A stretch of 64,000 nt of DNA from positions 1,024,001 to 1,088,000 of the forward strand of contig OZ271918.1 of assembly GCA_965602015.1 (NCBI GenBank), written 5' to 3'. The notes under the pieces were generated by a model, which saw nothing but the letters and a program-made list of their open reading frames with translations, was not told where the DNA came from and did not search any database. The translations under genes and the position numbers were made by a program. The stretch is from Salinispira sp. (lineage in GTDB: Bacteria; Spirochaetota; Spirochaetia; DSM-27196; Salinispiraceae). This document shows, piece by piece, positions 47,516 to 61,504 of this stretch (position 1 is the first letter of the stretch; each line of letters opens with the position of its first letter).

Positions 47516-49306
47516 ATGAGTCAAAGATCAGAACCAGCTGCAAATCCAAGCCTGCGGACACGAATAATCGCATTAGTGCTACTCCTGCTGGTTTTACCCC
47601 TGGTATTTTTTTCTGTTGCTGAAGTCATTTTGCAGCTTTCGGGTTACGGTATTGCACCGCGCCTGTTTATAGAGTCTGGAATCCCGGAAACTCTTGTTAT
47701 TAATGATGATTTTTTTAGACTCTTCTACCCTTCAATTAGCCAGACAGCCGTCGAAAGCGGTGAGGTATATAGGCCCAGCCTATTGACCATGCCAAAGCCC
47801 AATGATGTATATCGTGTGTTTATTCTGGGTGGTTCAACCGCCAAAGGATTTCCTTATTACGACCGGCATGCATTTCCCAATATCGCCGCGGAACAGCTCA
47901 ACGCCAATCTGAGGGGAAAGCGCATAGAAGTACATAATCTCGCTCAATCCGCAATGAGCTCATATTATGTCCGTGAAACCGCAAGATTGGCCCGGAAATA
48001 TGAACCGGACCTTATTATCATTTATAGCGGCCATAATGAGTATTACGGGACAATTGCTGCGGGTTCCGGAGGCGGCCACTTCGGCAAAAAACTGTTCATT
48101 GCTCTTAATCGCTTCAGGGTTTTTCAGTTTCTTTTCACTTTGATGGACGGCACAGACCGGACAGCCCCCGTCTCCGAGTCGCTTATGGCTCAGAGATTGA
48201 GGCAGGGTAGTTACCCCGCTGATGTGAATTTTGATGAGCGGATTGCGCGCCGATTTATTGATAACATAGATGATAGCGCACGCTATGCCCGTCAGGCCGG
48301 AATAGATGTACTTGTAATGGAACCCATAAGCAATCTCCTGGACATGCCGCCGTTTTCTTCAACGGCACCAGATCACATCCTCAATGAAATTCGTGACACC
48401 GCATCCCAAGCTCCGGCTAAGGGGCGATGGCCTGACATCGCTGCGGATTTGTTTTCCGATGTTATTGACTCGGAAGATAATGCTCACTTTCTGTACCTGC
48501 GCGAGTACGGTAGCACTGATCCCTCTATTGAAAATCTTGTCATGGCCAAGGATCGAGACACAAGCCCGTTTCGGGCCCGATCCGTTTTGATTGACTCCCT
48601 GCGGGACTGGGCTAATAGAAATCCTGATGTTGGCTATATTGCGACGGATCAGGAAATCCTAAGACTTGATGCTATCGAGAATAGGGGGAACAGTCTTTTT
48701 ATTGATCACTTGCATTTTACCTTTACAGGACAGCTTATCGTGGGCAACATAGTGGCCCGACGTATTGCAGAGCAGTTCTTAGTCGTTGAGGACATGAGTA
48801 TTCTTACAGAGTCCGAAGTAAGAGAACGCATCTTTTTCCATCCGGCACTGCAATACGAAAAGGAAAAATCCGTATTAGAGTTAATCACCCAGCCGCCGTT
48901 TATCAACATGGCATTCCCTTACGTAAATAATCACCTGCGAGAAACTTTGGTAAAAAATCCGCTGAATGACATACCGCAAATTGGAGAGCAGTTAGCACGT
49001 AGCCGTTCAATGGATATACTCCAGTTGGTTGGCGAGTATTATCTCGAGAATCGCCAGTTCGAACAGCTATACGACTTTTTACAGACCCTTGTGTACATAA
49101 ACCCCGGCGATCCGCGGACACATTTGAACCTGGCAGACCTGGTATCCATCAATCCCCAAACCCACCAGGCTGCCTTGTATCATTTTCAAATTGGATATTT
49201 ACTGTCTGGCCGAGATCCTGAAGTTCTCTCGCGCTTTAAGAATTTTACTGAGCAAAATGGATACCAGTCGCAGCTGGAAGCTTTTCTTCAGCGTCTGGGT
49301 GAATAG
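47516..49306 (+). CDS. Membrane-anchored SGNH/GDSL-fold protein with C-terminal TPR
   Basis: LGGST (block I), GHNEY (block III), DHLH (block V); N-terminal TM. Confidence 0.75.
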   Translation: MSQRSEPAANPSLRTRIIALVLLLLVLPLVFFSVAEVILQLSGYGIAPRLFIESGIPETLVINDDFFRLFYPSISQTAVESGEVYRPSLLTMPKPNDVYRVFILGGSTAKGFPYYDRHAFPNIAAEQLNANLRGKRIEVHNLAQSAMSSYYVRETARLARKYEPDLIIIYSGHNEYYGTIAAGSGGGHFGKKLFIALNRFRVFQFLFTLMDGTDRTAPVSESLMAQRLRQGSYPADVNFDERIARRFIDNIDDSARYARQAGIDVLVMEPISNLLDMPPFSSTAPDHILNEIRDTASQAPAKGRWPDIAADLFSDVIDSEDNAHFLYLREYGSTDPSIENLVMAKDRDTSPFRARSVLIDSLRDWANRNPDVGYIATDQEILRLDAIENRGNSLFIDHLHFTFTGQLIVGNIVARRIAEQFLVVEDMSILTESEVRERIFFHPALQYEKEKSVLELITQPPFINMAFPYVNNHLRETLVKNPLNDIPQIGEQLARSRSMDILQLVGEYYLENRQFEQLYDFLQTLVYINPGDPRTHLNLADLVSINPQTHQAALYHFQIGYLLSGRDPEVLSRFKNFTEQNGYQSQLEAFLQRLGE

Positions 49307-49315
49307 AGGGTATAT

Positions 49316-49474
49316 ATGGCAAAAACCAGAGTCATAAAAGAGTTGGTAGAGTACTTGGCAAAAAACAAACGGCTTTTTCTCCTTCCCCTCCTGGTAATTC
49401 TCGGAGTGGTAGGTATCGTGACAATAATTGCTCAGTCGCAGGCAATTGCACCGCTCATTTATACCTTGTTTTAG
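49316..49474 (+). CDS. DUF5989/SxtK-like small membrane protein, 52 aa (absent from the ORF track)
   Basis: MAKTRVIKELVEYLAKNKRLFLLPLLVILG...AIAPLIYTLF; typical APxIYTLF end. Confidence 0.85.
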   Translation: MAKTRVIKELVEYLAKNKRLFLLPLLVILGVVGIVTIIAQSQAIAPLIYTLF

Positions 49475-49475
49475 C

Positions 49476-51332
49476 ATGAACATACTTGGAATCTCAGCCT
49501 TCTACCATGACAGTGCTGCCGCGATAATTACTGATGGGAAAATTGCTGCCGCTGCCCAGGAAGAGCGTTTTAGTCGAAAAAAAGGTGATTCCGGTTTTCC
49601 ACAAAGAGCTGTAGAGTTCTGCTTGAAACAAGCTAATATTTCCGTCGATCAGCTCGAAGCTGTGGTCTACTACGATAAGCCACTTGTAACCTTTGAGCGC
49701 TTAATCATGAGCTATTTACACCGGGCTCCCCATGGCTTTTTCTCGTTTTTCCGCTCCATTCCGGTGTGGATTAAACGCAAGCTTTGGATTGAAGATATTA
49801 TCCGCAAAAAAATTCCTGGTGAGTACACAATACTCTTTTCGAGACATCACCACAGCCATGCGGCCAGTGCGTTTTTCCCCTCCCCATTCAAATCTGCCGC
49901 AATTGTGACATTGGACGGGGTCGGGGAATGGGAAACAACGACCATCGGCAGGGGGAGGGGGAGTTCGCTCGAATTAACCAGAGCAATTCACTTTCCTCAT
50001 TCCCTGGGGCTCTTATACTCTTCGTTCACCTATTACTGCGGTTTCCGGGTTAACTCCGGCGAATACAAACTCATGGGCTTGGCGCCCTATGGCAAACCGA
50101 AGTATGTCCAGCTAATTAAAGATCATTTGATCAGGCTAGAAGAAGACGGGAGCTTTAATCTGAATGAGCGTTACTTCAATTACATTTCCGGCTTGAGGAT
50201 GATAAATACCCGTTTCGAGAAACTTTTTAATCGTGCTGCACGCAAACCTGAGACAAATCCCGATCAATTTTACATGGATGTAGCTGCAAGTATTCAGAAG
50301 GTAACTGAAGATGCGGTGATTGGGATTGCCCGCCAAGCCAAAGCTATCAGCGGGGAAGATAACTTGGTGCTCGCCGGAGGGGTCGCTCTGAATTCCGTTG
50401 CAAATTATCGTATTTTGAAAGAAGGAGGTTTTTCCAATGTGTGGATTCAGCCCGCAGCCGGTGACGCCGGCGGAGCGCTCGGCGCCGCCTTGTATGCCTG
50501 GAATATGTATTATAAGAAGCCTCGGGCCATACCAAGCGAGCTCTCTTCCTCGGAGTATGGCTGGCATGATTTAATGGAAGGGGCCTTGTTGGGACCGGAT
50601 TTTACAGATTCTGAGATCGAAGAAAGCCTGAAAAAGCAGCAGTTGTTCTATGAAAAACTCACAGATTCACAATTATATGATCGGGCCGCTGATTCTTTGA
50701 GCAACGGAAAGGTGCTTGGATGGTTTCAAGGCCGAATGGAGTACGGGCCACGGGCTCTCGGCAGCCGGTCGATTCTCGCCGACCCCCGACAATCAGAAAT
50801 GCAAAAAACTCTCAATTTCAAAATAAAATTCAGAGAGGGATTCCGGCCCTTCGCACCGGTGGTCCTTGCCGAGAAACAGCAAGAATGGTTTGATTTGCAG
50901 CAGGTTTCCCCTTATATGCTCATGGTTGCGCCGGTTTCCGAAATAAAGCGAGTCGGAAGTACGGGCAGGCATCAGAAGGAATCGGGTTTTTCTAGCCTCC
51001 GAGAGAAAAGGTCGGAAATTCCATCGGTAACTCATGTGGATTATAGCGCCCGCCTGCAGTCGGTCCATCGCAAACTTCATGGGAAACTGTACGAGCTGTT
51101 ACAATGCTTCGATAGAAAAACCGGATGCCCTGTTCTGATCAATACGAGTTTTAATGTACGGGGAGAGCCTATCGTGAATTCCCCAGATGACGCTATCCGC
51201 TGTTTCCTCGGCACCCACATGGATGCCCTTGCGATTGGTAACTACTACGTTTCAAAATCAAGGCAAAACCTCGATAAGACTACTTTGGATGATCTACTCG
51301 AAGGCTGGAGGCAAGGACATGTCTATGACTAG
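49476..51332 (+). CDS. Carbamoyltransferase (CmcH/NodU/SxtI family)
   Basis: ILGISAFYHDSAA, HHHSHA, GEYKLMGLAPYG, GPRALGSRS, NTSFNVRGEP. Confidence 0.95.
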   Translation: MNILGISAFYHDSAAAIITDGKIAAAAQEERFSRKKGDSGFPQRAVEFCLKQANISVDQLEAVVYYDKPLVTFERLIMSYLHRAPHGFFSFFRSIPVWIKRKLWIEDIIRKKIPGEYTILFSRHHHSHAASAFFPSPFKSAAIVTLDGVGEWETTTIGRGRGSSLELTRAIHFPHSLGLLYSSFTYYCGFRVNSGEYKLMGLAPYGKPKYVQLIKDHLIRLEEDGSFNLNERYFNYISGLRMINTRFEKLFNRAARKPETNPDQFYMDVAASIQKVTEDAVIGIARQAKAISGEDNLVLAGGVALNSVANYRILKEGGFSNVWIQPAAGDAGGALGAALYAWNMYYKKPRAIPSELSSSEYGWHDLMEGALLGPDFTDSEIEESLKKQQLFYEKLTDSQLYDRAADSLSNGKVLGWFQGRMEYGPRALGSRSILADPRQSEMQKTLNFKIKFREGFRPFAPVVLAEKQQEWFDLQQVSPYMLMVAPVSEIKRVGSTGRHQKESGFSSLREKRSEIPSVTHVDYSARLQSVHRKLHGKLYELLQCFDRKTGCPVLINTSFNVRGEPIVNSPDDAIRCFLGTHMDALAIGNYYVSKSRQNLDKTTLDDLLEGWRQGHVYD

Positions 51333-51714
51333 GGTCACGCGGTTCGGACAAAAGCGGATAATCCAAAGCATAGTGTTCAGTCTGATTGGCATGGGCTTGC
51401 TCGCCAGTCTTCTACTTTTGCGTGGGCACCGAACCGCGGCTATTACGGTAATTATCCTTGCGTTCTTACATGGCGCGTTGAATCTTTTATGGCGCGGATA
51501 TAGAACTGCTTTTAGCCGTTTTTCAGTTGCCATGATACGGCTGATTGGGACTATCATCAGCGCCGTTGTCCTGGGTTTGTTTTATTTCACCGTGTTCTCC
51601 GTTTTCTCATTGCTGTGGAAACTTTTCAGAAAGGATGAACTTATACGCAATGGCGGATGGCAGGTAATCGATTCCAGGGAAAACGACCCTTCACGGCTTG
51701 AGAAACTCTATTAG
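51325..51714 (+). CDS. SxtJ-like membrane protein
   Basis: Short multi-TM protein; LIGTIISAVVLGLFYF...KD motif; follows the carbamoyltransferase. Confidence 0.7.
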   Translation: MTRVTRFGQKRIIQSIVFSLIGMGLLASLLLLRGHRTAAITVIILAFLHGALNLLWRGYRTAFSRFSVAMIRLIGTIISAVVLGLFYFTVFSVFSLLWKLFRKDELIRNGGWQVIDSRENDPSRLEKLY

Positions 51715-51784
51715 CTAAACCAACTCCTGTGATTTGTTTCTCTTTTGATTGGACAGCAGCAATTGCTCTGCCTATATTGGACTT

Positions 51785-52054
51785 ATGGTCACAAAAACCA
51801 TTACCCTCACCAATCCCAAGGGCATTCACGCGCGCCCGTCTGCTATGATTCTCCAGACTGCGCAGAATTACAAATCGGATATTGAACTGATCAAGGACGG
51901 CGAAGTAGCACATGCCGGAGACATCATGTCCATAATAGCCCTTGGCGCAATGCATGGCGATGAAATTACCCTTCGCTGTAACGGACCTGATGAAGGCGCC
52001 GCCCTGGAGCATATGCTTGAAATATTCGCTCGACGCTTTGATGACCATGATTAG
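51785..52054 (+). CDS. HPr family phosphocarrier paralogue (His15 intact, Asp at position 46)
   Basis: GIHARPSA; ungapped alignment to canonical HPr numbering gives G45-D46-I47-M48. Confidence 0.92.
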   Translation: MVTKTITLTNPKGIHARPSAMILQTAQNYKSDIELIKDGEVAHAGDIMSIIALGAMHGDEITLRCNGPDEGAALEHMLEIFARRFDDHD

Positions 52055-52346: not shown

Positions 52347-52383
52347 TTGGAAAGGTTTCCAATACTATTGGAAACCTTTCCAA
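52347..52383. promoter_or_regulatory. Perfect 37-bp inverted repeat made of two LacI/cre-like boxes
   Basis: TTGGAAAGGTTTCCAATA-C-TATTGGAAACCTTTCCAA. Confidence 0.65.
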
Positions 52384-52580: not shown

Positions 52581-53801
52581 ATGAAGAAACTGCGAAATTT
52601 GGGGATAGCGCTTCTGGCCGCATTGGTTCTCTTGGCCGGCTGTGCAAACCCCTTTGTTGGAGAAGATGGTGAAGTTGCCACCGTCAGCGGAATCGAAGGT
52701 TCCTCTGGTTTAGGTGTCATCGAACTGTCTTGGACTGAACCGGATGTAGACTTTGCTCAGGTGGAAATCTCATTTTCATCGGAGACTGATACCGACAACA
52801 CAGTCGTTACAGTAGACAAAGGGACCACGTCCTATACATTCGAAGAATTGACCGGTGTCGACGAAGAATACACCTTCGTGTTTACCACCGTCACTTCGAA
52901 TGGTGTGAAGGCAAGTAAAACGGCGACGTTCGCAATCACCGAAGGTCAACTGACTGTAGCCGATTTGGCCGCTGCGGTGGAAAGCACCAGCTCTGCAATG
53001 CTCACATGGACAGAGCCGGACTTCCCCTATGACAGCGTTACCATCGATTGGGTTAACGTTAATGACGCCGCGGACAACGGATCGGTAGCCGATATTGCCC
53101 GTGACGAAAAATACGATGACACCGACACAGAAACCGAATGGGACCCCAACAGATCCTATGAGGTTACGGGACTTACTCTCGACGAAACCTATACCTTCGA
53201 GGTGACCATCGTTCTCGGCAGCCGCTCATCTTCAGTCTCCGTTACTTCTGATGAATTGCTTCTTGAACTCTATCAGGGTTTCCCGAATATCTACACTTTC
53301 GGACCCGAGCTGGTAGGTGGATGGCCCGGTCAGGCTGACGTTGCGGTTAATGCTGATACTGGTCTTCGAAGCATCACCTTCGCTGCGCAAAGTTCAATCG
53401 ACGGAGTAATTCTGAACGGCGGCGGACTCACACAGACTGGTAATATCGCTATTAGCGCTCCCGGCGTGTATCTCATCGACGTGGACAATGATACGGTTTT
53501 CGGAGCTACTGATCCCAGCACTGTAATTGTAATGTGGGCGGACAGAAACAGACCGAACGTATATACATTCACTCCCGAAGCTGCAGGTGGATGGCCCGGC
53601 ACAAGCCCCGATGAAGTTAAGGGAATCCGTTCATTTGATACCGAATTGACAAGTGTCGGCGGAGTAATCCTCAACGGAACCGGCCAGACCGGAAACATGA
53701 CCAATACCACCGAAGCCGGTTATTACCTCTATACCGCGGTTGATACCCTTACCAAGCTCGGTCCGGACGGCGGTACTGACATCGTTATTTATTGGAAATA
53801 A
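52581..53801 (+). CDS. Lipoprotein with two FN3-like domains and two CBM26-like starch-binding repeats
   Basis: Lipobox LAGC; L(S/T)WTEPD twice; repeats PN.YTF.PE..GGWPG...GVILNG..QTGN starting at 53283 and 53553. Confidence 0.7.
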   Translation: MKKLRNLGIALLAALVLLAGCANPFVGEDGEVATVSGIEGSSGLGVIELSWTEPDVDFAQVEISFSSETDTDNTVVTVDKGTTSYTFEELTGVDEEYTFVFTTVTSNGVKASKTATFAITEGQLTVADLAAAVESTSSAMLTWTEPDFPYDSVTIDWVNVNDAADNGSVADIARDEKYDDTDTETEWDPNRSYEVTGLTLDETYTFEVTIVLGSRSSSVSVTSDELLLELYQGFPNIYTFGPELVGGWPGQADVAVNADTGLRSITFAAQSSIDGVILNGGGLTQTGNIAISAPGVYLIDVDNDTVFGATDPSTVIVMWADRNRPNVYTFTPEAAGGWPGTSPDEVKGIRSFDTELTSVGGVILNGTGQTGNMTNTTEAGYYLYTAVDTLTKLGPDGGTDIVIYWK

Positions 53802-53816
53802 GCACAGGAGAATGAC

Positions 53817-55928
53817 ATGAAAAAACTAGTTCTTGTTGTAACAGCTCTCCTTCTCGCGGTACTGCCCGTTGTGGCCCAGTCTTCCGTGAGTCTTGAGCTC
53901 CCCGATGAGCTGGTACTGGTGTTCCGCTATGAGAACGCCGATGCCGCCACGGTGAATATTGCCGGCCCCTTCCAGGGCTGGGATCCCGAAGCCACTCCCA
54001 TGGAGCAGGTTGAACCGGGAATCTGGGAATATCGGCTCGATGTAACAGCCGCCGACTCCATCACATTCAAATATGTTGTCGATGGTGAGTATCTCGGAAG
54101 CATGGAAGGTCTTGCTCCTTCTACCAGCGAAGACGGATTCGGTGGTAAGAACGGGGTTGTGGCTGTGGCTGACATGGCTGCTGCAGGTGGAGCAGATGAC
54201 GATGTGTTCCGCACAAGCCTTACCTTCGGCTCATTTACCCAGTTCTACTCAGACACCAGCATCAGAACAACATCTATCGCTCCCGGCGATGACGGCGATT
54301 TTCTCAAGGGCTTTGAAATGGATAACAGTATTTTCAAGGCTGCGTCCTACTGGAAATACACTGCCGGCATCCTTCCCGGTATCGATTCCTTTATTGAGCT
54401 AAAAGCCTTTGACGGAACCATCACCATATTCGAACAGGCTCCCGATGCCAGTGCGGATCCCGATAATATTCTCGATCCAGCAGTCACCATCGAGGATGGA
54501 CTGGAAAATATCGCTGAAGCGCTTTTTGGTCCTTTCCATACCTTCAACGGCGATGCCCAGCCCGAGCTCGGCCATTTTAAGGCCGGCATAACGACTCCGT
54601 TTGTTGAGTTCTCGACAGGGTACAAAAATGCCAAAAGCGACGAATCCAGCCGCGAGTTGATGTACGAAACCTTCGACAACGGCGCCAGTGCCAACGACGG
54701 TTTCTTTGAAATCGCAAACGGTGCAGAAATTTCCGAGTTCGGCGGGCTGACTCTTGATGTCTTGCTCGGACTCACTAAGCGGGCCGGCGGACACGGTATG
54801 TACTCCTGGATCGATCTCGGCGTTGCAGGTTTCGATATCAGCATCGCATACAACACCCTCGCCAACCGTCTTGATGACGATGCCCTTCGCTACTACTTCT
54901 TCGATGCACGGCACACCATCGGTCTCGGACTGGATGCAGCTGACCTGGTTCCCGATCTTCTGAGCCTAAAAGTAGAAGCCTTGACCACCATTGACGCACT
55001 TGAAACCTATGATGCCGCTGATGACATTGTTGCCGGTCTCGCAGGTGATCTTACTCTCAGTGATATTTTCTCAAGCGGCTTCTATGCAAAGTATGCGGGC
55101 AACGGTGTTGTTACCCTCTTCGGTGACGACAGCACTCTCGATGCAGGACTGTTCAAAGCCGGTATTTCGCCGGTAAGCAAACCCATCGAACTTCTTCAGG
55201 TCGGGGCCAATTACGATCTTGAGGTGGACAATGAGTTCGCTGGGGACCTGGAACACGATATCAATCCGTACCTGAACGTGTATCTGGCTTCCGTACTCGG
55301 TCTCGACATCACCGTCGGCGGCTTTTCGAACCTCGCCCTTGTTGGTTCGGACTTCAGCTTCGTCGATGCAGGCGGTACCGTGAGCGTAAAGGACGTGGCT
55401 ATTCTTTCTGAAATTGGTCTGGGGTACACCTACAAGCAGGATGCGGCCGATACCGGATACTTCAATGTGGCAACCGGCGAACTGATTCCGGTTATATCCA
55501 CCGTATACGCCGGATATGATTACACCGCTGAAGCCCTCGATCAGGGTGCGGCTTATCTGGGTACTGAAATTGTCGGAATCGCCGAAGCCATCGAAGGCAT
55601 CAATGTAGATTTCGGCTGGAAGGCCCAGGATGTGTCCATGATGGCTCAGGCGGATTTTGTCAACGATTTCGCTGCAAACCTCGGCGCCATCGTACGACTG
55701 GCAGACGGCGAAACTTCTCCCTTCGGTGTGGCACTCGGCGGTAACGTGACCCTCAATGACGCCTGGAAGAAAGGCATCGCCTTCCTCCAGATGGGATATG
55801 ATTTTGATCCCTATGGCGGCATAAATGACGGCAAGATTGACTTCGACGAAGATTCACCCAACTACCTCGAAAATGTTGGCGGTCAGGGCGAAGCGTTTGT
55901 ATCTTTTGGTATCACCTGGAACTTCTAA
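53817..55928 (+). CDS. CBM48/AMPK-type glycogen-binding domain fused to a putative outer-membrane beta-barrel
   Basis: Signal peptide; VNIAGPFQGW...PM...GIW...FKYVVDG; then ~570 aa of alternating strands ending FVSFGITWNF. Confidence 0.75.
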   Translation: MKKLVLVVTALLLAVLPVVAQSSVSLELPDELVLVFRYENADAATVNIAGPFQGWDPEATPMEQVEPGIWEYRLDVTAADSITFKYVVDGEYLGSMEGLAPSTSEDGFGGKNGVVAVADMAAAGGADDDVFRTSLTFGSFTQFYSDTSIRTTSIAPGDDGDFLKGFEMDNSIFKAASYWKYTAGILPGIDSFIELKAFDGTITIFEQAPDASADPDNILDPAVTIEDGLENIAEALFGPFHTFNGDAQPELGHFKAGITTPFVEFSTGYKNAKSDESSRELMYETFDNGASANDGFFEIANGAEISEFGGLTLDVLLGLTKRAGGHGMYSWIDLGVAGFDISIAYNTLANRLDDDALRYYFFDARHTIGLGLDAADLVPDLLSLKVEALTTIDALETYDAADDIVAGLAGDLTLSDIFSSGFYAKYAGNGVVTLFGDDSTLDAGLFKAGISPVSKPIELLQVGANYDLEVDNEFAGDLEHDINPYLNVYLASVLGLDITVGGFSNLALVGSDFSFVDAGGTVSVKDVAILSEIGLGYTYKQDAADTGYFNVATGELIPVISTVYAGYDYTAEALDQGAAYLGTEIVGIAEAIEGINVDFGWKAQDVSMMAQADFVNDFAANLGAIVRLADGETSPFGVALGGNVTLNDAWKKGIAFLQMGYDFDPYGGINDGKIDFDEDSPNYLENVGGQGEAFVSFGITWNF

Positions 55929-55940
55929 GAGGAGAAGGCA

Positions 55941-56378
55941 ATGAAAAAAACAGTATTAGTTATTGCCGTCCTTATGGCGGCAGTGCTTCTTGGTTCCTGC
56001 GGGAATACCCTTTTTAACGCAAGCGGAGTGTTCATCACCGAGCTTACTGTTGAGAACCTTCCTGCAGAGGGCGAATATGCTCTTGCCGGTTCGTTTTTCG
56101 AGGAAGAATGGACCAACACCTATCTGGCAACCCAGTCGGTGGAAGGTTCGGTAACCTGGGAATTTGACCCCGCGCTTGAGGTACCGGTCGGTGATTCGGA
56201 GTTCAAGATTGTTCAGTCCGGCACTTGGAATTTCGCTGTCGAAGGAGGATTTAGAGATCCCCACGGCAACGCGAACGTCTTCGACGCCGAAGGTCTGACC
56301 ATCGACGGCGGCGAGTGGGTTATTACCTTCGATGCCACCAAGACCGAGTCTGAAGCCATGACTGCGGTTAAACCGTAA
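55941..56378 (+). CDS. Small lipoprotein with a SusE/SusF-like carbohydrate-binding domain
   Basis: Lipobox LGSC; YALAGSF...W...EFKI...W...GNANV...GEWVITFD. Confidence 0.6.
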   Translation: MKKTVLVIAVLMAAVLLGSCGNTLFNASGVFITELTVENLPAEGEYALAGSFFEEEWTNTYLATQSVEGSVTWEFDPALEVPVGDSEFKIVQSGTWNFAVEGGFRDPHGNANVFDAEGLTIDGGEWVITFDATKTESEAMTAVKP

Positions 56379-56485
56379 CAGCATTTTTCCCTTCCGGCAT
56401 TCGCCGGGGGGGATTTCGAGCGTCGCTTTCGATTCCGAAGCGGCGCCCGGTATCCTCCTTTTTTGGGGTAGCGTTGGGGTTTCGG

Positions 56486-56521
56486 GGCTGCTTGGTGTTT
56501 CACCAGGCAGCCTTCTTTTTT
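56486..56521 (+). terminator. Terminator-like hairpin between the binding-protein genes and the GH13 gene
   Basis: GGCTGCTTGGTG-TTT-CACCAGGCAGCC followed by TTCTTTTTT. Confidence 0.6.
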
Positions 56522-56530
56522 GGGGGAGTA

Positions 56531-58501
56531 ATGAATAAGAGCGTAATCATTTTGTCGGGCATTTTGGCGGTGCTTATATTATTAACATCCTGTCCCGGAC
56601 CGGTGGACAGCGGCACAACTATTCCGGCCGATTGGCAGTACGGTGCCGAATATTTGGGTTCAGGCCGGGGAACGCGATTTGTTCTTCACGCTCCCGGGGC
56701 TTCCACCGTCTATGTCAGCGGTACGTTCAATAGTTGGGATAAGACCCCTATGAACCGGGACGGCGATAATTTCTGGGTTTAAATTACCTCTGCATCCCCG
56801 GGCGACCGGTACAAGTACCGGTCAGATGATTTTAGCGGTGAATGGATAGCCGATCCATTTTCCCGGGCGGTGAGCGCTGACGCCGATGAGAACTCGGTAA
56901 TAATTGACCCTGACGGCCCTGCTTCCAATTATATCTGGCAGTCCACTGCCTGGGCCCGCCCGGACCGCCGGGATTTGGTCATTTACGAGATGCATGTGGC
57001 GGACTTCACCTGGCAGGAAAGGGAGGCTCCGTCTTCAAGCGCAGGCCTGGTTGACGGAGATGCGGTGTCCGACGGCAACCAGGGAAGCTTCGACGGTGTC
57101 ACCGAACGCATTGAGTACCTTGAGGCCTTGGGTGTCAATGCGGTCCAGCTCATGCCGGTCCAGGAATGGCCGGGGCAGTTCTACAGCTGGGGGTACAATC
57201 CCTCGCTCTATTGGGCAATCGAAGCGGGGCTTTCCAGCAATAGAAGCGATCCGGAACAGGTGCTTCTGGACTTCAAGGAAATGGTCGACGCTCTCCATCA
57301 ATCGGGGATAGCGGTGATTCTTGATGTGGTGTACAACCACGTTGACGGCTCCTCTCCGTTGAGCAGAATCAATACTGCTGGCTATATCGACGGCGATACT
57401 CCCTGGGGCCCAAGGCTGGACATTAGCGATGACTTTATCTACTCCTATGTTCTGGATAATCTTAAGTACTTAATGGATGAGTTTCGAATTGACGGCTTCC
57501 GGTTTGATGCCACGGAACACAGCGACGGGGCCTCAATGCGCTCGCTGATTAATGAACTCTACAGCCTGGGTTACGGCGACCGCTATTATATTTTTGAGGA
57601 ATTCAACGGCGACCACAACGAGGCGATTCAAGCATATAATGCCCTCCACGGGGAAACCCGAATATCCAGCTGGGGCACGGGCTACAAGGATGCCATCTAT
57701 CCGGCACTGGCTGATGCGGGATACTCCGGCCTGGGTTCGGTGACCTATCACTCAAATGATAACGGCTGGATTCAGGCGGCTTCGGCCATCAGCTATGCAA
57801 GCAGCCACGACGAGGGAACCCTGTACTTTCATGCAGGCAATGACGATATAAGCTCTGACGGAATCGGCGATGACCTTGCCGATCAAAAGCAGCTTGCGCT
57901 GACCTCCCTTACCCATGTACTCACAAGCCTCGGAATTCCCATGATCTGGATGGGAGACGAGCTCATGCGCGATCACCGGGGCAATAGTTCCGATACGGTC
58001 AGCGGTTCCGGAAGCAATGTGGATGAAATCAACAATCAGGTCGATTGGCAGGGGCTTGCCTCGGCAAACAGCGAGTACTTTCTATACCTCAGTAACCTGA
58101 TTCACCTGCGTGCTATACATCCGAGCATCGGCCGGGCAGTCAGCCAACCGGACAGCGACGGAAGTTCTCTGTCCGACGGATTTATGTGGTTAAATAGTTG
58201 GGGAGATGAGGGTGACATTAGCACCGGCCTGATTGCGTACATCAGGGCGGTAGCAGGAGACCGGCCCTTCGCCGTCTTTATCAATTACGGTGATTCCGAC
58301 AAATCAGGATTTGTTGTTAATCTTCAGCCGCCATACCAGTCGTTAAATGAGAGCTGGACCCTTGTTGCCGACAGTTCAATCCCTCTGGCTTCTCAGGCCG
58401 GGCTGTCTGTGGGCGGTGATTTGCTGTTTGCCGGTGGACAGGCGACGCTTACAATTCCTTCCAATACCGCATATATTTTTATGGGGCCCGTGAATTTCTA
58501 A
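56531..58501 (+). pseudogene. GH13 alpha-amylase family lipoprotein with N-terminal CBM48, interrupted by one in-frame TAA (56780-56782)
   Basis: Lipobox LTSC; VSGTFNSW; frame continues past TAA (ITSASPGDRYKY...IADPFSR); DVVYNH, DGFRFD, FEE and SHDE catalytic regions intact. Confidence 0.85.
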
Positions 58502-58519: not shown

Positions 58520-58975
58520 ATGCGCCGTTTTTTTATAATTTACACCAGCCTGTCCCTCCTCTTTTGCGCCCCGCTGTGGACCCAGGAGCTTCCCCGTGAG
58601 GTGACAAGTTTTATGGCGGTTGATGAAAATTTCTCCGCCGACCGCAGGTATGCCCAGGTAATAAAGGCCGAGGCCAGACAGGCGCCCAACGGAACGTGGG
58701 TTATTTCCACCACAATTGACCACAATGACGAACGGCTTCCCGACGGAACCGAGCACTACGCCGACCGTTGGGAGGTGGTAGACCCGCGAAACGGCGAGGT
58801 GCTGGCCGTGCGCAGGCTTCTTCACTCCCATATGTACGAAATGCCCTTTACCCGCAGCCTAAGCGGCGTGGTGATTCCCGAGGGACTGGACCGGGCACAC
58901 ATTCGGGCGGCCTGCACCCATCATGGTTTTGCGGGCCGGCAGGTTCTTTTGCCCCTGTTCAGCCGGGAAGAGTAA
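58520..58975 (+). CDS. Exported His/Cys-rich small protein (possible metal-binding, SOR-like motif)
   Basis: Signal peptide; HND...EHYADRWEV...LHSH...PFTRS...RAACTHHG. Confidence 0.65.
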   Translation: MRRFFIIYTSLSLLFCAPLWTQELPREVTSFMAVDENFSADRRYAQVIKAEARQAPNGTWVISTTIDHNDERLPDGTEHYADRWEVVDPRNGEVLAVRRLLHSHMYEMPFTRSLSGVVIPEGLDRAHIRAACTHHGFAGRQVLLPLFSREE

Positions 58976-59066
58976 AGACCAAAATCCGTGCTCGGGGAGT
59001 TTTCCTTGTCCCCTTTACATAAATTAGATATCTTTTCAAAAATCACAGAATGTAATAGAGGCAGAC

Positions 59067-59960
59067 ATGAGCAGCAGCACGGCCACAGCGGTACCGGTAC
59101 AGGATATACATCTACAGCTTTTTGAGCAGGGGAGTCGGACCTACTACAACGCCACCCGTTTTTTTCCCCGGGAGCTCAGAGAGAGGGTAACCCTCCTGTA
59201 TGCCTTTGTGCGCAAGGCCGACAGTCTTGTGGATGATATCCCCCAGGATCGGGCAGGTTTTGAAGCGTTCTGCAAGGCATTCGAGAGCCTGCGGGAGGCC
59301 GCAGCGGTGGATCTGTCCATTGTAAACAGCCCCGATGTTGATCCGGTGATCGGCGGTTTTGTCTACCTCGAGAAAACCTGTCCCTTTGATCCGGCTTGGG
59401 CAGATGCTTTTCTTTACAGCATGCGACTCGACCTTGAAAAGAGTCATTACGACTCCCTTAATGAAACCCTCGAATATATCTACGGCTCGGCTGAGGTAAT
59501 AGGGCTTTTTATGGCGAGAATAATGGGCCTGCCGGATGACTCTCTGGAAGGGGCAAAAATGCTCGGACGGGCAATGCAGTATATCAATTTCCTGCGGGAC
59601 GCCGACGAAGACAATGAACTTGGCAGACGCTATATCCCTTTGAGGGAGTCGGGACTTGCGGGACTCGACAAGGCAAGCGCCTCCAAACAGCCATTGGTGT
59701 TTGAGAAATTCTACCGGGAAGAACTGAACCGTTTTCGCCGGTGGCAGGCCGACGCGGATACAGCGTTTAAATATATTCCCCGCAGATACCGAATACCCAT
59801 AAGAACCGCGTCGGATATGTACCTGTGGACCGCAGAACAGATTTACCGTGATCCCTGGGTGATCTTCGACCGTCAGGTAAAGCCCGGAAAGCTCCGAATT
59901 ATCCTCAGGGGCTTAGCAAATACGCTTCGAGGCGGCATGCCGCGGAAAATGCGCTACTAA
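59067..59960 (+). CDS. crtB: Phytoene synthase
   Basis: LYAFVRKADSLVDD, YGSAEVIG, QYINFLRDADED..LGRRYIP. Confidence 0.93.
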   Translation: MSSSTATAVPVQDIHLQLFEQGSRTYYNATRFFPRELRERVTLLYAFVRKADSLVDDIPQDRAGFEAFCKAFESLREAAAVDLSIVNSPDVDPVIGGFVYLEKTCPFDPAWADAFLYSMRLDLEKSHYDSLNETLEYIYGSAEVIGLFMARIMGLPDDSLEGAKMLGRAMQYINFLRDADEDNELGRRYIPLRESGLAGLDKASASKQPLVFEKFYREELNRFRRWQADADTAFKYIPRRYRIPIRTASDMYLWTAEQIYRDPWVIFDRQVKPGKLRIILRGLANTLRGGMPRKMRY

Positions 59961-59989
59961 AGCGATTAGCCAAAACGGAGATCGGATAC

Positions 59990-61504
59990 GTGAACCACAG
60001 TGCAGCTAAAAAAAAGACGGTGATTATCGGGGCGGGTTTCGGCGGTTTGGCCTCTGCCCTCTATCTGGCCTCCAAGGGCAGGTCTGTCGCCGTATACGAC
60101 AAACGGGATCAACCGGGCGGCAAGGCCTACTCCTTTAGCCTCGGGGAATACCGGTTCGATGCCGGTCCCAGCCTCTTCACCCTCCGGGATTATTTTGAAG
60201 AGCTTTTTTCCCTCTCGGGGGCCCGATTTTCCGACTATGTAGAAACAATTGAACTTGACCCCATCACCAGCTATTTCTTCGCCGACGGCAGCACAATCCG
60301 CAGCAGACCGGGAAAGGCTTTTCTCGATGAGGTGGAACAGTTCGCCCCGAATCAGCGGGAGGGTATGATGCGGTACCTGGAGTACTCGAAGCGCATACTC
60401 GACATCAGTGAGGACCTCTTTCTCAAGAATCCGTTGAGTCACTGGAAATCCGGCGGTCCTCTGACCGCGGTTAAAAACCTTATGAAGCTCGGGGGAATAG
60501 ACGTTTTCCGCCGCATGCACAATGCCAACTCGGGCTTCGTGTCTGATCCTCGGTTAATCCAGCTTCTCGACCGCTTCGCGACATATAACGGGTCCAATCC
60601 ATATCTGGCGCCGGCGGCTCTCAACTGCATAGCCTGGGTGGAACACGGACGCCCGGTGTATGCCCTTCGTCATGGAATCGCAGCCATCCCTGCGGCCATG
60701 GAAAAGCGTGCGAGGGAGCTGGGGGTTGAGTTTCACTATGGAAAAGAACTGATGTCGTTCCAGCCTCCTGATTCGGGTGCGGATAAGTTCCGCCTGCATT
60801 TTTCCGACGGCGAAATTGTGCGAGCCGATAAACTCATCGCCGATGTGGACATCCTGCGATGGTACGAAGACATCGCCAAAACTCCTAAGCGTCATGCGGC
60901 AAAACGCTATAGAAGGCAACCCTCCAGTTCCTCGGCAGTGGTGTTCTTTTGGGGAGTTAAAGAAGCGTTCCCCCGCTTGGGGCTGCACAACATATTCTTC
61001 TCGTCGGATTACCGGCATGAGTTCGACCAGATTCACCGGGAAAAAAAACTGCCCGATGATCCGACGGTGTATGTAAACATCGGGTCGAAATTCAGCCCCG
61101 AGGATGCTCCGGAGGGCTGTGAAAACTGGTTCGTCATGGTCAATGCTCCCTGGCACAGCGAGGGGCGTTCCTGGGAAAAGGATATCGGAAAGCTTCGCTC
61201 GACGGTAATCGAACGGATAAATCGGGACCTCGGGACCAACCTCAGCCCGCTCATTGCGGAGGAGAGGATTCTCAGTCCCGACATAATAGAGGAAGAAACC
61301 GGCAGTTATCGCGGCAGTCTGTACGGAATCAGTTCAAACAATATGACCGCCGCGTTTCGCCGACACCCGAACCGGTCGCCCTATTTGAGGGGTTTGTACC
61401 ACTGCGGCGGAAGCGTACACCCGGGCGGCGGCATGCCCCTTGCCGTCAGTTCAGGCATGATAGCTGCCCGACAACTTTTGGAGGATGAAAGTGGAAGCAA
61501 GTAA
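59990..61504 (+). CDS. crtD: CrtI-family desaturase, most like 1-hydroxycarotenoid 3,4-desaturase
   Basis: IGAGFGG, FDAGPSLFT, RFATYNGSNPY, AAFRRHPN...GGSVHPGGGMPL; adjacent to cruF. Confidence 0.75.
   Translation: MNHSAAKKKTVIIGAGFGGLASALYLASKGRSVAVYDKRDQPGGKAYSFSLGEYRFDAGPSLFTLRDYFEELFSLSGARFSDYVETIELDPITSYFFADGSTIRSRPGKAFLDEVEQFAPNQREGMMRYLEYSKRILDISEDLFLKNPLSHWKSGGPLTAVKNLMKLGGIDVFRRMHNANSGFVSDPRLIQLLDRFATYNGSNPYLAPAALNCIAWVEHGRPVYALRHGIAAIPAAMEKRARELGVEFHYGKELMSFQPPDSGADKFRLHFSDGEIVRADKLIADVDILRWYEDIAKTPKRHAAKRYRRQPSSSSAVVFFWGVKEAFPRLGLHNIFFSSDYRHEFDQIHREKKLPDDPTVYVNIGSKFSPEDAPEGCENWFVMVNAPWHSEGRSWEKDIGKLRSTVIERINRDLGTNLSPLIAEERILSPDIIEEETGSYRGSLYGISSNNMTAAFRRHPNRSPYLRGLYHCGGSVHPGGGMPLAVSSGMIAARQLLEDESGSK

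Follow-up and report, generated by a model that had tools for sequence, protein, structure and literature searches.

How might starch-like glucans cross the outer membrane of a spirochaete when the genes that seem to handle them include none of the familiar transporters? The question is raised by a stretch of 64,000 nucleotides of Salinispira sp. (GenBank assembly GCA_965602015.1, contig OZ271918.1), hereafter the window, which is G000:C1:1024001-1088000 of the source genome (G000, a single contig of 3.87 Mb). Four co-oriented genes, A, B, C and D, lie on its + strand at 52581-58501. An earlier note had read them as four exported proteins with starch-binding modules, forming a capture system analogous to the Sus system of Bacteroides. 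Their place and orientation stood, as did the integrity of A, B and C, but D, a gene of glycoside hydrolase (GH) family GH13, carries a stop and is interrupted. The conserved core of the locus is gene B with the lipoprotein gene that follows it. We concluded that the locus is real and conserved, a module of spirochaetes which seems not to have been described before, with a predicted role in glycan uptake. Our preferred reading, which we hold to be reasonably probable, is that B is a large outer-membrane barrel importing oligosaccharides of starch or pullulan by diffusion, its carbohydrate-binding module (CBM) of family CBM48 acting as a periplasmic trap, and that A, B and C form a maltodextrin-regulated operon.

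Gene B (53817..55928, + strand) encodes 703 residues: a signal peptide, a CBM48 (residues ~36-94), a predicted outer-membrane barrel of ~26 strands (~134-703) and a C-terminal W-N-F. The CBM48 (PF02922) scores 23 bits for a cut-off of 22.4; its fold gives Z 9-10 to CBM48-bearing structures in VIA, and a G-x-F-x-x-W motif and a Lys are conserved in at least 90% of the 21 alignment rows. The ~570 residues which follow found no match in Pfam, NCBIfam or the PDB sequence search. The model obtained with AlphaFold2 from the 21-row alignment (pLDDT 75.5; its numbering is that of the full-length protein minus 6) comprises a CBM48 sandwich, then a linker and 26 strands. Odd strands are followed by long gaps (median of 9 residues and maximum of 43, one containing helices), even strands by short ones (median 3), save for strand 18, after which come 35 residues of low confidence. 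These 35 residues are an insertion unique to the G000 protein and resemble a duplicated hairpin; at the DNA level an apparent tandem beta-hairpin duplication is seen at ~55380-55490, and it is not present in the closest homologues (P0002-P0006). The treponemal members of the family appear one hairpin short. From this deficit and the insertion taken together, the family may span 24-28 strands. Of 124 full barrels, 117 have Trp as the third residue from the C-terminal end, and all end in a hydrophobic residue. Outer-membrane barrels generally have their short turns on the periplasmic side; together with the strand parity, this predicts that the N-terminus of B and its CBM48 are periplasmic, off the cell surface. 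Hence, of the description of B as a CBM48 plus beta-barrel protein, the CBM48 (just above cut-off) and the predicted barrel were retained, but not the CBM48 as a surface capture module.

With a profile built from 18 barrels, matches were obtained in 23 of the 401 genomes searched in the phylum: 18 strong ones in the same class and 5 weak ones outside it. Among close relatives the profile matched 6 of 61. The family, which amounts to 141 representatives at 50% identity, carries spirochaete names in databases and is itself unnamed, without a Pfam, NCBIfam or close PDB match. Its members are labelled only 'glycogen-binding domain-containing protein', 'Amylopullulanase' or 'hypothetical', which means that the transporter part is unannotated. 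Neighbours were counted around the 26 CBM48-barrels with fetched DNA (there are 32 barrel rows overall), 17 of which have 4.9 kb or more on each side; a broken barrel (L076) and the distant loci L077-L080 were left out. GH13 is found near 16 of the 26, and near 13 of the 17. The next gene encodes a lipoprotein in 23 of the 26, two of the misses being at contig ends, and a homologue of sugar-binding proteins is near 5. By Pfam, the neighbours comprise alpha-amylases, pullulanases, GH57, GH31, ABC sugar importers, LacI and CBM26 lipoproteins. The proposed link with alpha-glucans is therefore borne out, since GH13 and other starch genes flank most CBM48-barrels, and so is synteny across spirochaetes, the barrel, the next lipoprotein and starch genes recurring in relatives. 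Larger barrel relatives of 870-965 aa occur in another class of the phylum (L077:6752-9649, L078:7351-9972, L079:1956-4760); L077 has two copies of CBM48, and two of these three loci adjoin pullulanases. Salinispira pacifica, which PMC4511686 describes as growing on pullulan, starch and maltose, encodes the member P0232. A single treponemal query led to 6 loci, each truncated close to where the barrel begins, and a metagenome scan with gene B gave no confirmed relative. Some genomes hold two or three barrels: G110 (in tandem, L026:8228-12833), G341 (contigs C9, C24 and C38) and G320, each copy being paired with a different lipoprotein.

Does the family handle starch only? The barrel of G292 has no CBM48 and sits between two GH53 galactanase genes. 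A search of the 351 genomes of the family of G292 gave 32 matches, namely G292 itself, G516 (of the CBM48 type) and 30 close members. All 30 loci of the latter contain GH53 and have a C-family lipoprotein gene directly 3' of the barrel; none of the 30 has a GH13 match or a CBM48 on the barrel. GH35 and a sugar ABC importer were found in the one galactan locus scanned in full. The galactan barrels make up a single clade (support 1.0) that lies within the CBM48 forms, and CBM48 is also absent in other branches of the barrel tree. Judging from the sequences, one clade has dropped CBM48, kept its C-type partner and serves galactan loci, so that barrel and partner look like a reusable, substrate-swappable chassis. 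A system for alpha-glucans only, as the earlier note had it, is thus too narrow. There are also natural GH53-Big_4-barrel fusions of ~1210-1227 aa (P0041, L096), and in the mixed cluster of P0041 (76 members) 8 of the 15 listed members have the fusion length; the barrel topology being the same, the fused GH53 would be periplasmic. Besides, five CBM-less barrels stand outside the galactan clade (P0021, P0028, P0037, P0081 and P0115), and their loci may point to other substrates; the first three have no N-terminal domain at all.

What would drive the sugars through such a barrel? The absence of SusC, SusD, TonB and LamB, claimed for the window, extends to the whole genome of G000, where PF00593, PF07715, PF03544, PF07980 and PF02264 had no match and the positive controls did. 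SusD (PF07980) was found in none of 5 genomes, the B. thetaiotaomicron control being matched. No adjacent TonB-dependent transporter is to be seen in the family either: a TonB-receptor homologue lies near the barrel in 0 of the 32 barrel rows (two queries). In G210, G317 and G329 TonB-receptor parts exist elsewhere, the closest at ~23 kb from the G210 barrel. PF02264, the LamB family, did not match the gene B family, and the barrel is indeed unrelated to SusC or LamB as far as family matches go; at the position where a plug would be, B has its CBM48. The part of the claim that has to be qualified is the motor, as ExbB/ExbD genes and a TonB/TolA-like neighbour exist. ExbD matches were obtained in 5 of 5 genomes tested, and in G000 one operon (C1:1949663-1951765) encodes ExbB/TolQ, ExbD/TolR and a 351-aa anchored Pro/Ala-rich protein, TonB/TolA-like, which searches of Pfam, NCBIfam and PDB did not place. 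Because of this motor, the passivity of transport can only be presumed. On this ground B could be supposed to import glycans with energy delivered by ExbB/ExbD through the TonB/TolA-like protein, C or a loop serving as gate, that is, to be an analogue of SusC/SusD with a new fold, and a barrel of 24-28 strands does need a gate. We regard this as improbable: neither G000 nor its relative G332 has a match to a TonB receptor, a plug or TonB_C, the G000 motor scores best to TolQ and is far from the barrel locus, and P0021, P0028 and P0037 offer no N-terminal domain. The surroundings of the motor (L127, G000:C1:1949663-1956570) comprise a TPR protein, a 578-aa unknown protein, ExbB/TolQ, ExbD/TolR and the divergent TonB/TolA-like protein.

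Structural comparison of the model raises two other possibilities. Foldseek returned generic barrels only (query TM at most 0.36). In VIA the porin matches are partial: the best is AlgE (Z 16.9, rmsd 6.7, 262 residues aligned), and ScrY (1a0s) aligns with residues 127-514 only, at rmsd 6.8, of a model with 26 strands. The longest alignments are with PapC (Z 14.8, rmsd 4.9, 377 aligned), a SlpA-type SDBC, LptD and FimD, so that the proteins which the model of B matches best over its full length are machines of export (PapC/FimD, LptD). LptD has a small lipoprotein, LptE, as its partner. B might then be a pore, similar to an usher, LptD or a translocon, which exports or displays the partner lipoproteins and hydrolases, the sugars entering otherwise; a lipoprotein gene follows almost every barrel gene, and the GH53 fusions look like passenger-barrel designs. 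All these proteins are large barrels. However, they differ from B by an rmsd of 4.9-7.9 at ~8% identity and share no accessory domain with it, no POTRA or usher domain being detected by Pfam in B or in its family, and B stands in a carbohydrate gene context. The structural matches are generic (identity 5-15%), and a periplasmic CBM48 which is lost with the switch to galactan suits substrate handling better than protein export. We give the export function a lower probability still. Another match is Wzi, a carbohydrate-binding occluded barrel (Z 15.1, rmsd 7.2), and it brings to mind a non-conducting scaffold or adhesin that keeps binding lipoproteins and enzymes on insoluble glucan; a reversed topology would expose CBM48 to the medium. 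This is in our opinion the least likely of the three alternatives, as strand parity favours a periplasmic CBM48, G000 offers no LamB or TonB receptor as another way in, and ABC importers adjoin the barrel in relatives.

The partner of the barrel, gene C (55941..56378, +), encodes a small lipoprotein of 145 aa, lipidated at Cys20, with a C-x(n)-H-N tether. It has no Pfam match at E 0.1, and PDB sequence searches with it or with the barrel gave nothing useful. A profile search gathered 46 relatives, in which C1 (the lipidated Cys), N7 of the L-H-N tether, W38 and W77 are invariant. Its model (pLDDT 78) is predicted to have the fold of a starch-binding module: 12 of the top 13 rows in VIA are such modules or their bearers (CBM25, CBM26, CBM20, CBM41; Z 5.0-6.1), and Foldseek, with nothing at E 0.001, listed the AMPK glycogen-binding domain and CBM25 at the top. 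C had been described as a SusE/F-like lipoprotein. The lipoprotein with a starch-CBM fold stands, but kinship with SusE/F is no more than putative: there is no PF16411 match for C, and SusE/F is not among the 50 fold matches listed. One partner lipoprotein, at L075, matches PF16411 at E 1e-4, below the cut-off. The C family also occurs in galactan loci, and the partner in the starch locus of G332 is closest to the one in the galactan locus of G292 (E 1e-17); this means that C follows the barrel and not the sugar. C would, in our view, dock on the barrel or gate it.

The putative control of the operon was read from its upstream region. Two palindromes TGGAAA-NN-TTTCCA, 21 bp apart, lie 5' of gene A (predicted LacI-family operators, 52348..52361 and 52369..52382); we take their shape to be LacI-like. 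Two matches at one mismatch were reached in 3 of 100 shuffles. G000 has 6 exact sites for ~1 expected, other spacers giving 0-3 and the reversed control 0. One of the 6 is inside an unrelated ABC gene, and the other 5 are at the barrel operon or at GH13-linked genes, that is before a lipoprotein GH13, at a LacI gene beside GH13 and at a lipoprotein gene after a GH13 amylase. G332 has 6 sites too. Two of them repeat the tandem arrangement, with its distance of 21 bp, in front of the barrel gene; the remaining four lie at GH13-linked genes, orthologous or otherwise. G317 has one exact palindrome. It is likely from these sites that a LacI-family repressor controls A-B-C and that A-B-C is co-regulated with amylase genes. 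A cluster at G000:C1:3207056-3226207 (L087, L088) groups GH13, LacI, glycosidase lipoproteins and an amylo-alpha-1,6-glucosidase under the same palindromes, and likely holds the regulator; its LacI protein is encoded at G000:C1:3209023-3210003. Little could be learned from the sigma-70 promoter scan, which gave 9 sites where shuffles give 5.7, none of the 9 being in the gap upstream of A.

Gene A (52581..53801, +, with GGAGG 7 nt 5' of its ATG) encodes a 406-aa lipoprotein (lipobox LAGC, lipidated Cys21) with two FN3 and two CBM26-like repeats. Of the FN3 plus CBM26-like lipoprotein which had been announced, the lipobox and FN3 (E 1e-11, two stretches in Pfam) stood; repeat 1 of the C-terminal part (~53262-53798) matches CBM26 (PF16738) below cut-off (E 0.0095, 16.5 bits for 28.1) and repeat 2 has no CBM26 match in Pfam. 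The homologue search found no homologue of the C-terminal part except itself, and the PDB sequence search and ESM Atlas gave nothing useful for the repeats. The N-terminal 120 aa are 41% identical to the gene preceding the barrel in G704; there and in G720 only the FN3 stalk of A is found 5' of the barrel, carrying other C-terminal modules, and A has no match at the G332 or G210 loci. To judge by its distribution, A is a variable accessory protein, predicted to bind glucan. Gene D (56531..58501, +) is probably terminated separately from A-B-C, a terminator-like hairpin of 14 pairs followed by a T-run (56484..56514, +; a consensus match only) lying between C and D, the longest stem among the 10 found, against 7.7 in shuffles. 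D has the lipobox (Cys21), CBM48 and GH13 (PF00128, E 2e-16; catalytic Asp/Glu/Asp motifs GFRFDA, IFEEF and SSHDE) of the lipidated enzyme which had been claimed, but its reading frame is broken and likely stands behind a terminator. The pieces match residues 1-80 (44%) and 82-629 (55%) of the intact G332 orthologue, which suggests a recent nonsense change. The contigs of three runs agree on the stop, two spanning the whole stretch and a shorter one covering the site; a long-read error is not supported, these contigs being identical there, although all runs come from one sample, possibly the source of the assembly. As 16 other open reading frames of G000 match the GH13 part of D, its loss need not disable starch use.

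The preferred reading of B as an importing pore can be set out as follows. Lipoprotein amylases and pullulanases, whose genes are present elsewhere in the genome and whose products would be at the surface, would cut the polymer, D being broken. Close to the pore, A and C would bind the glucan, and C would probably sit on the barrel as its lid or plug. The oligomers would cross the barrel, presumably passively, no TonB plug being matched. The CBM48, periplasmic if strand parity holds, would retain them for hydrolases and a sugar ABC transporter, a hand-off suggested by ABC genes adjacent in five relatives, and a LacI-family repressor would act on the tandem palindromes. A B-type locus is therefore modelled as probably a substrate-swappable, unenergised glycan channel with a periplasmic trap. 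More tentatively, and with more doubt than conviction, one may imagine a new class of transporter, a lipoprotein-gated barrel of 24-28 strands in which CBM48 or a fused GH53 acts as a Brownian ratchet, drawing inward a glycan chain that threads the pore.

Besides the export-machine matches and the motor operon given above, several observations speak against this picture. The model of B is only moderate (pTM 0.60, with residues 520-552 below pLDDT 50), and the Z of 5-6 for gene C is in the range where the tool is unsure, below a sure match. Four of the 17 full-context CBM48-barrels (L030, L032, L033, L124) have no GH13, GH57 or GH31 nearby. In G344 the barrel gene (L076:9267-11402) contains two TGA stops, the rest of its maltodextrin locus being intact. 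G210 and G329 lack the exact palindrome, D has an in-frame TAA (56780-56782) within its CBM48, and the 30 galactan loci, forming one clade, count as one event.

How does the locus compare with known systems? As in a Bacteroides polysaccharide utilisation locus (PUL), an outer-membrane transporter gene comes first, then genes for lipoproteins that bind glycans and for a lipoprotein GH13, and the chassis is reused for another glycan. The structures nearest to the intact D orthologue (8xx9, E 6e-31; 8dl1/8dge, E 1e-28) are of the BoGH13A_Sus type; the Sus components are described in PMC11633381, where BoSusG is assigned to GH13_47. The lipoprotein GH13 of the spirochaete locus is interrupted in G000 and intact in G332. 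Unlike Sus, the spirochaete locus has no match to a TonB-receptor barrel, plug or SusD; a CBM is fused to the barrel, control is predicted to be of the LacI type instead of SusR, and inner-membrane uptake would be by the ABC genes seen in relatives. SusC-like domains in a spirochaete bin are mentioned in PMC5541161. The enterobacterial maltose system consists of LamB, a trimeric barrel of 18 strands, and MalE/F/G/K, and Klebsiella has a pullulanase lipoprotein. The likeness lies in a probably unenergised pore, periplasmic trapping and an ABC importer for maltodextrins; unlike LamB, B has no PF02264 match, ~26 strands, a built-in CBM48 and a dedicated lipoprotein partner, and its family also serves galactan. 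The locus works as a hybrid of PUL and maltose system and is a member of neither. The Msp/Tpr proteins of Treponema, pore formers according to PMC8407342, are likewise spirochaete-specific, beta-rich and of the outer membrane, with an ESM Atlas feature score of 0.94 between B and Msp clusters. Kinship of B with them found no support from profiles: none of 18 members matched MOSP_N or MOSP_C, and profile comparison with a 3-sequence Msp alignment gave a probability of 0.4%.

Directly 5' of the locus (47516-51714, +) are genes for an SGNH/GDSL-like membrane protein, a NodU-type carbamoyltransferase and a small membrane protein. L023 and L028 have the same three next to the barrel, while in the distant loci L077 and L078 only the SGNH-like gene is near it. 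An HPr gene (51749-52054, +; Pfam E 5e-26) immediately precedes the operator region. Downstream (58520-61504, +) come a family-less 151-aa exported protein and phytoene synthase-like and desaturase-like genes, in the same order as after the GH13 of G332 (L022).

The earlier note knew of no characterised spirochaete system of this form. The literature search agrees: no title or abstract start described the barrel family, most subscription papers lying outside the search, and no paper was found on how glycans cross the outer membrane of saccharolytic spirochaetes. These organisms, rumen and termite treponemes or species of mats and hot springs, degrade polysaccharides, and the barrel family is a candidate for the entry route. 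It can be tested in cultured hosts, and its fold has no close solved relative. The barrels may also serve as a genome marker of spirochaete substrate range, CBM48 indicating alpha-glucan and the CBM-less clade galactan. If the tentative picture of a barrel that threads glycan chains is true, spirochaetes would have TonB-free, substrate-swappable utilisation loci for starch, for galactan and perhaps for more.

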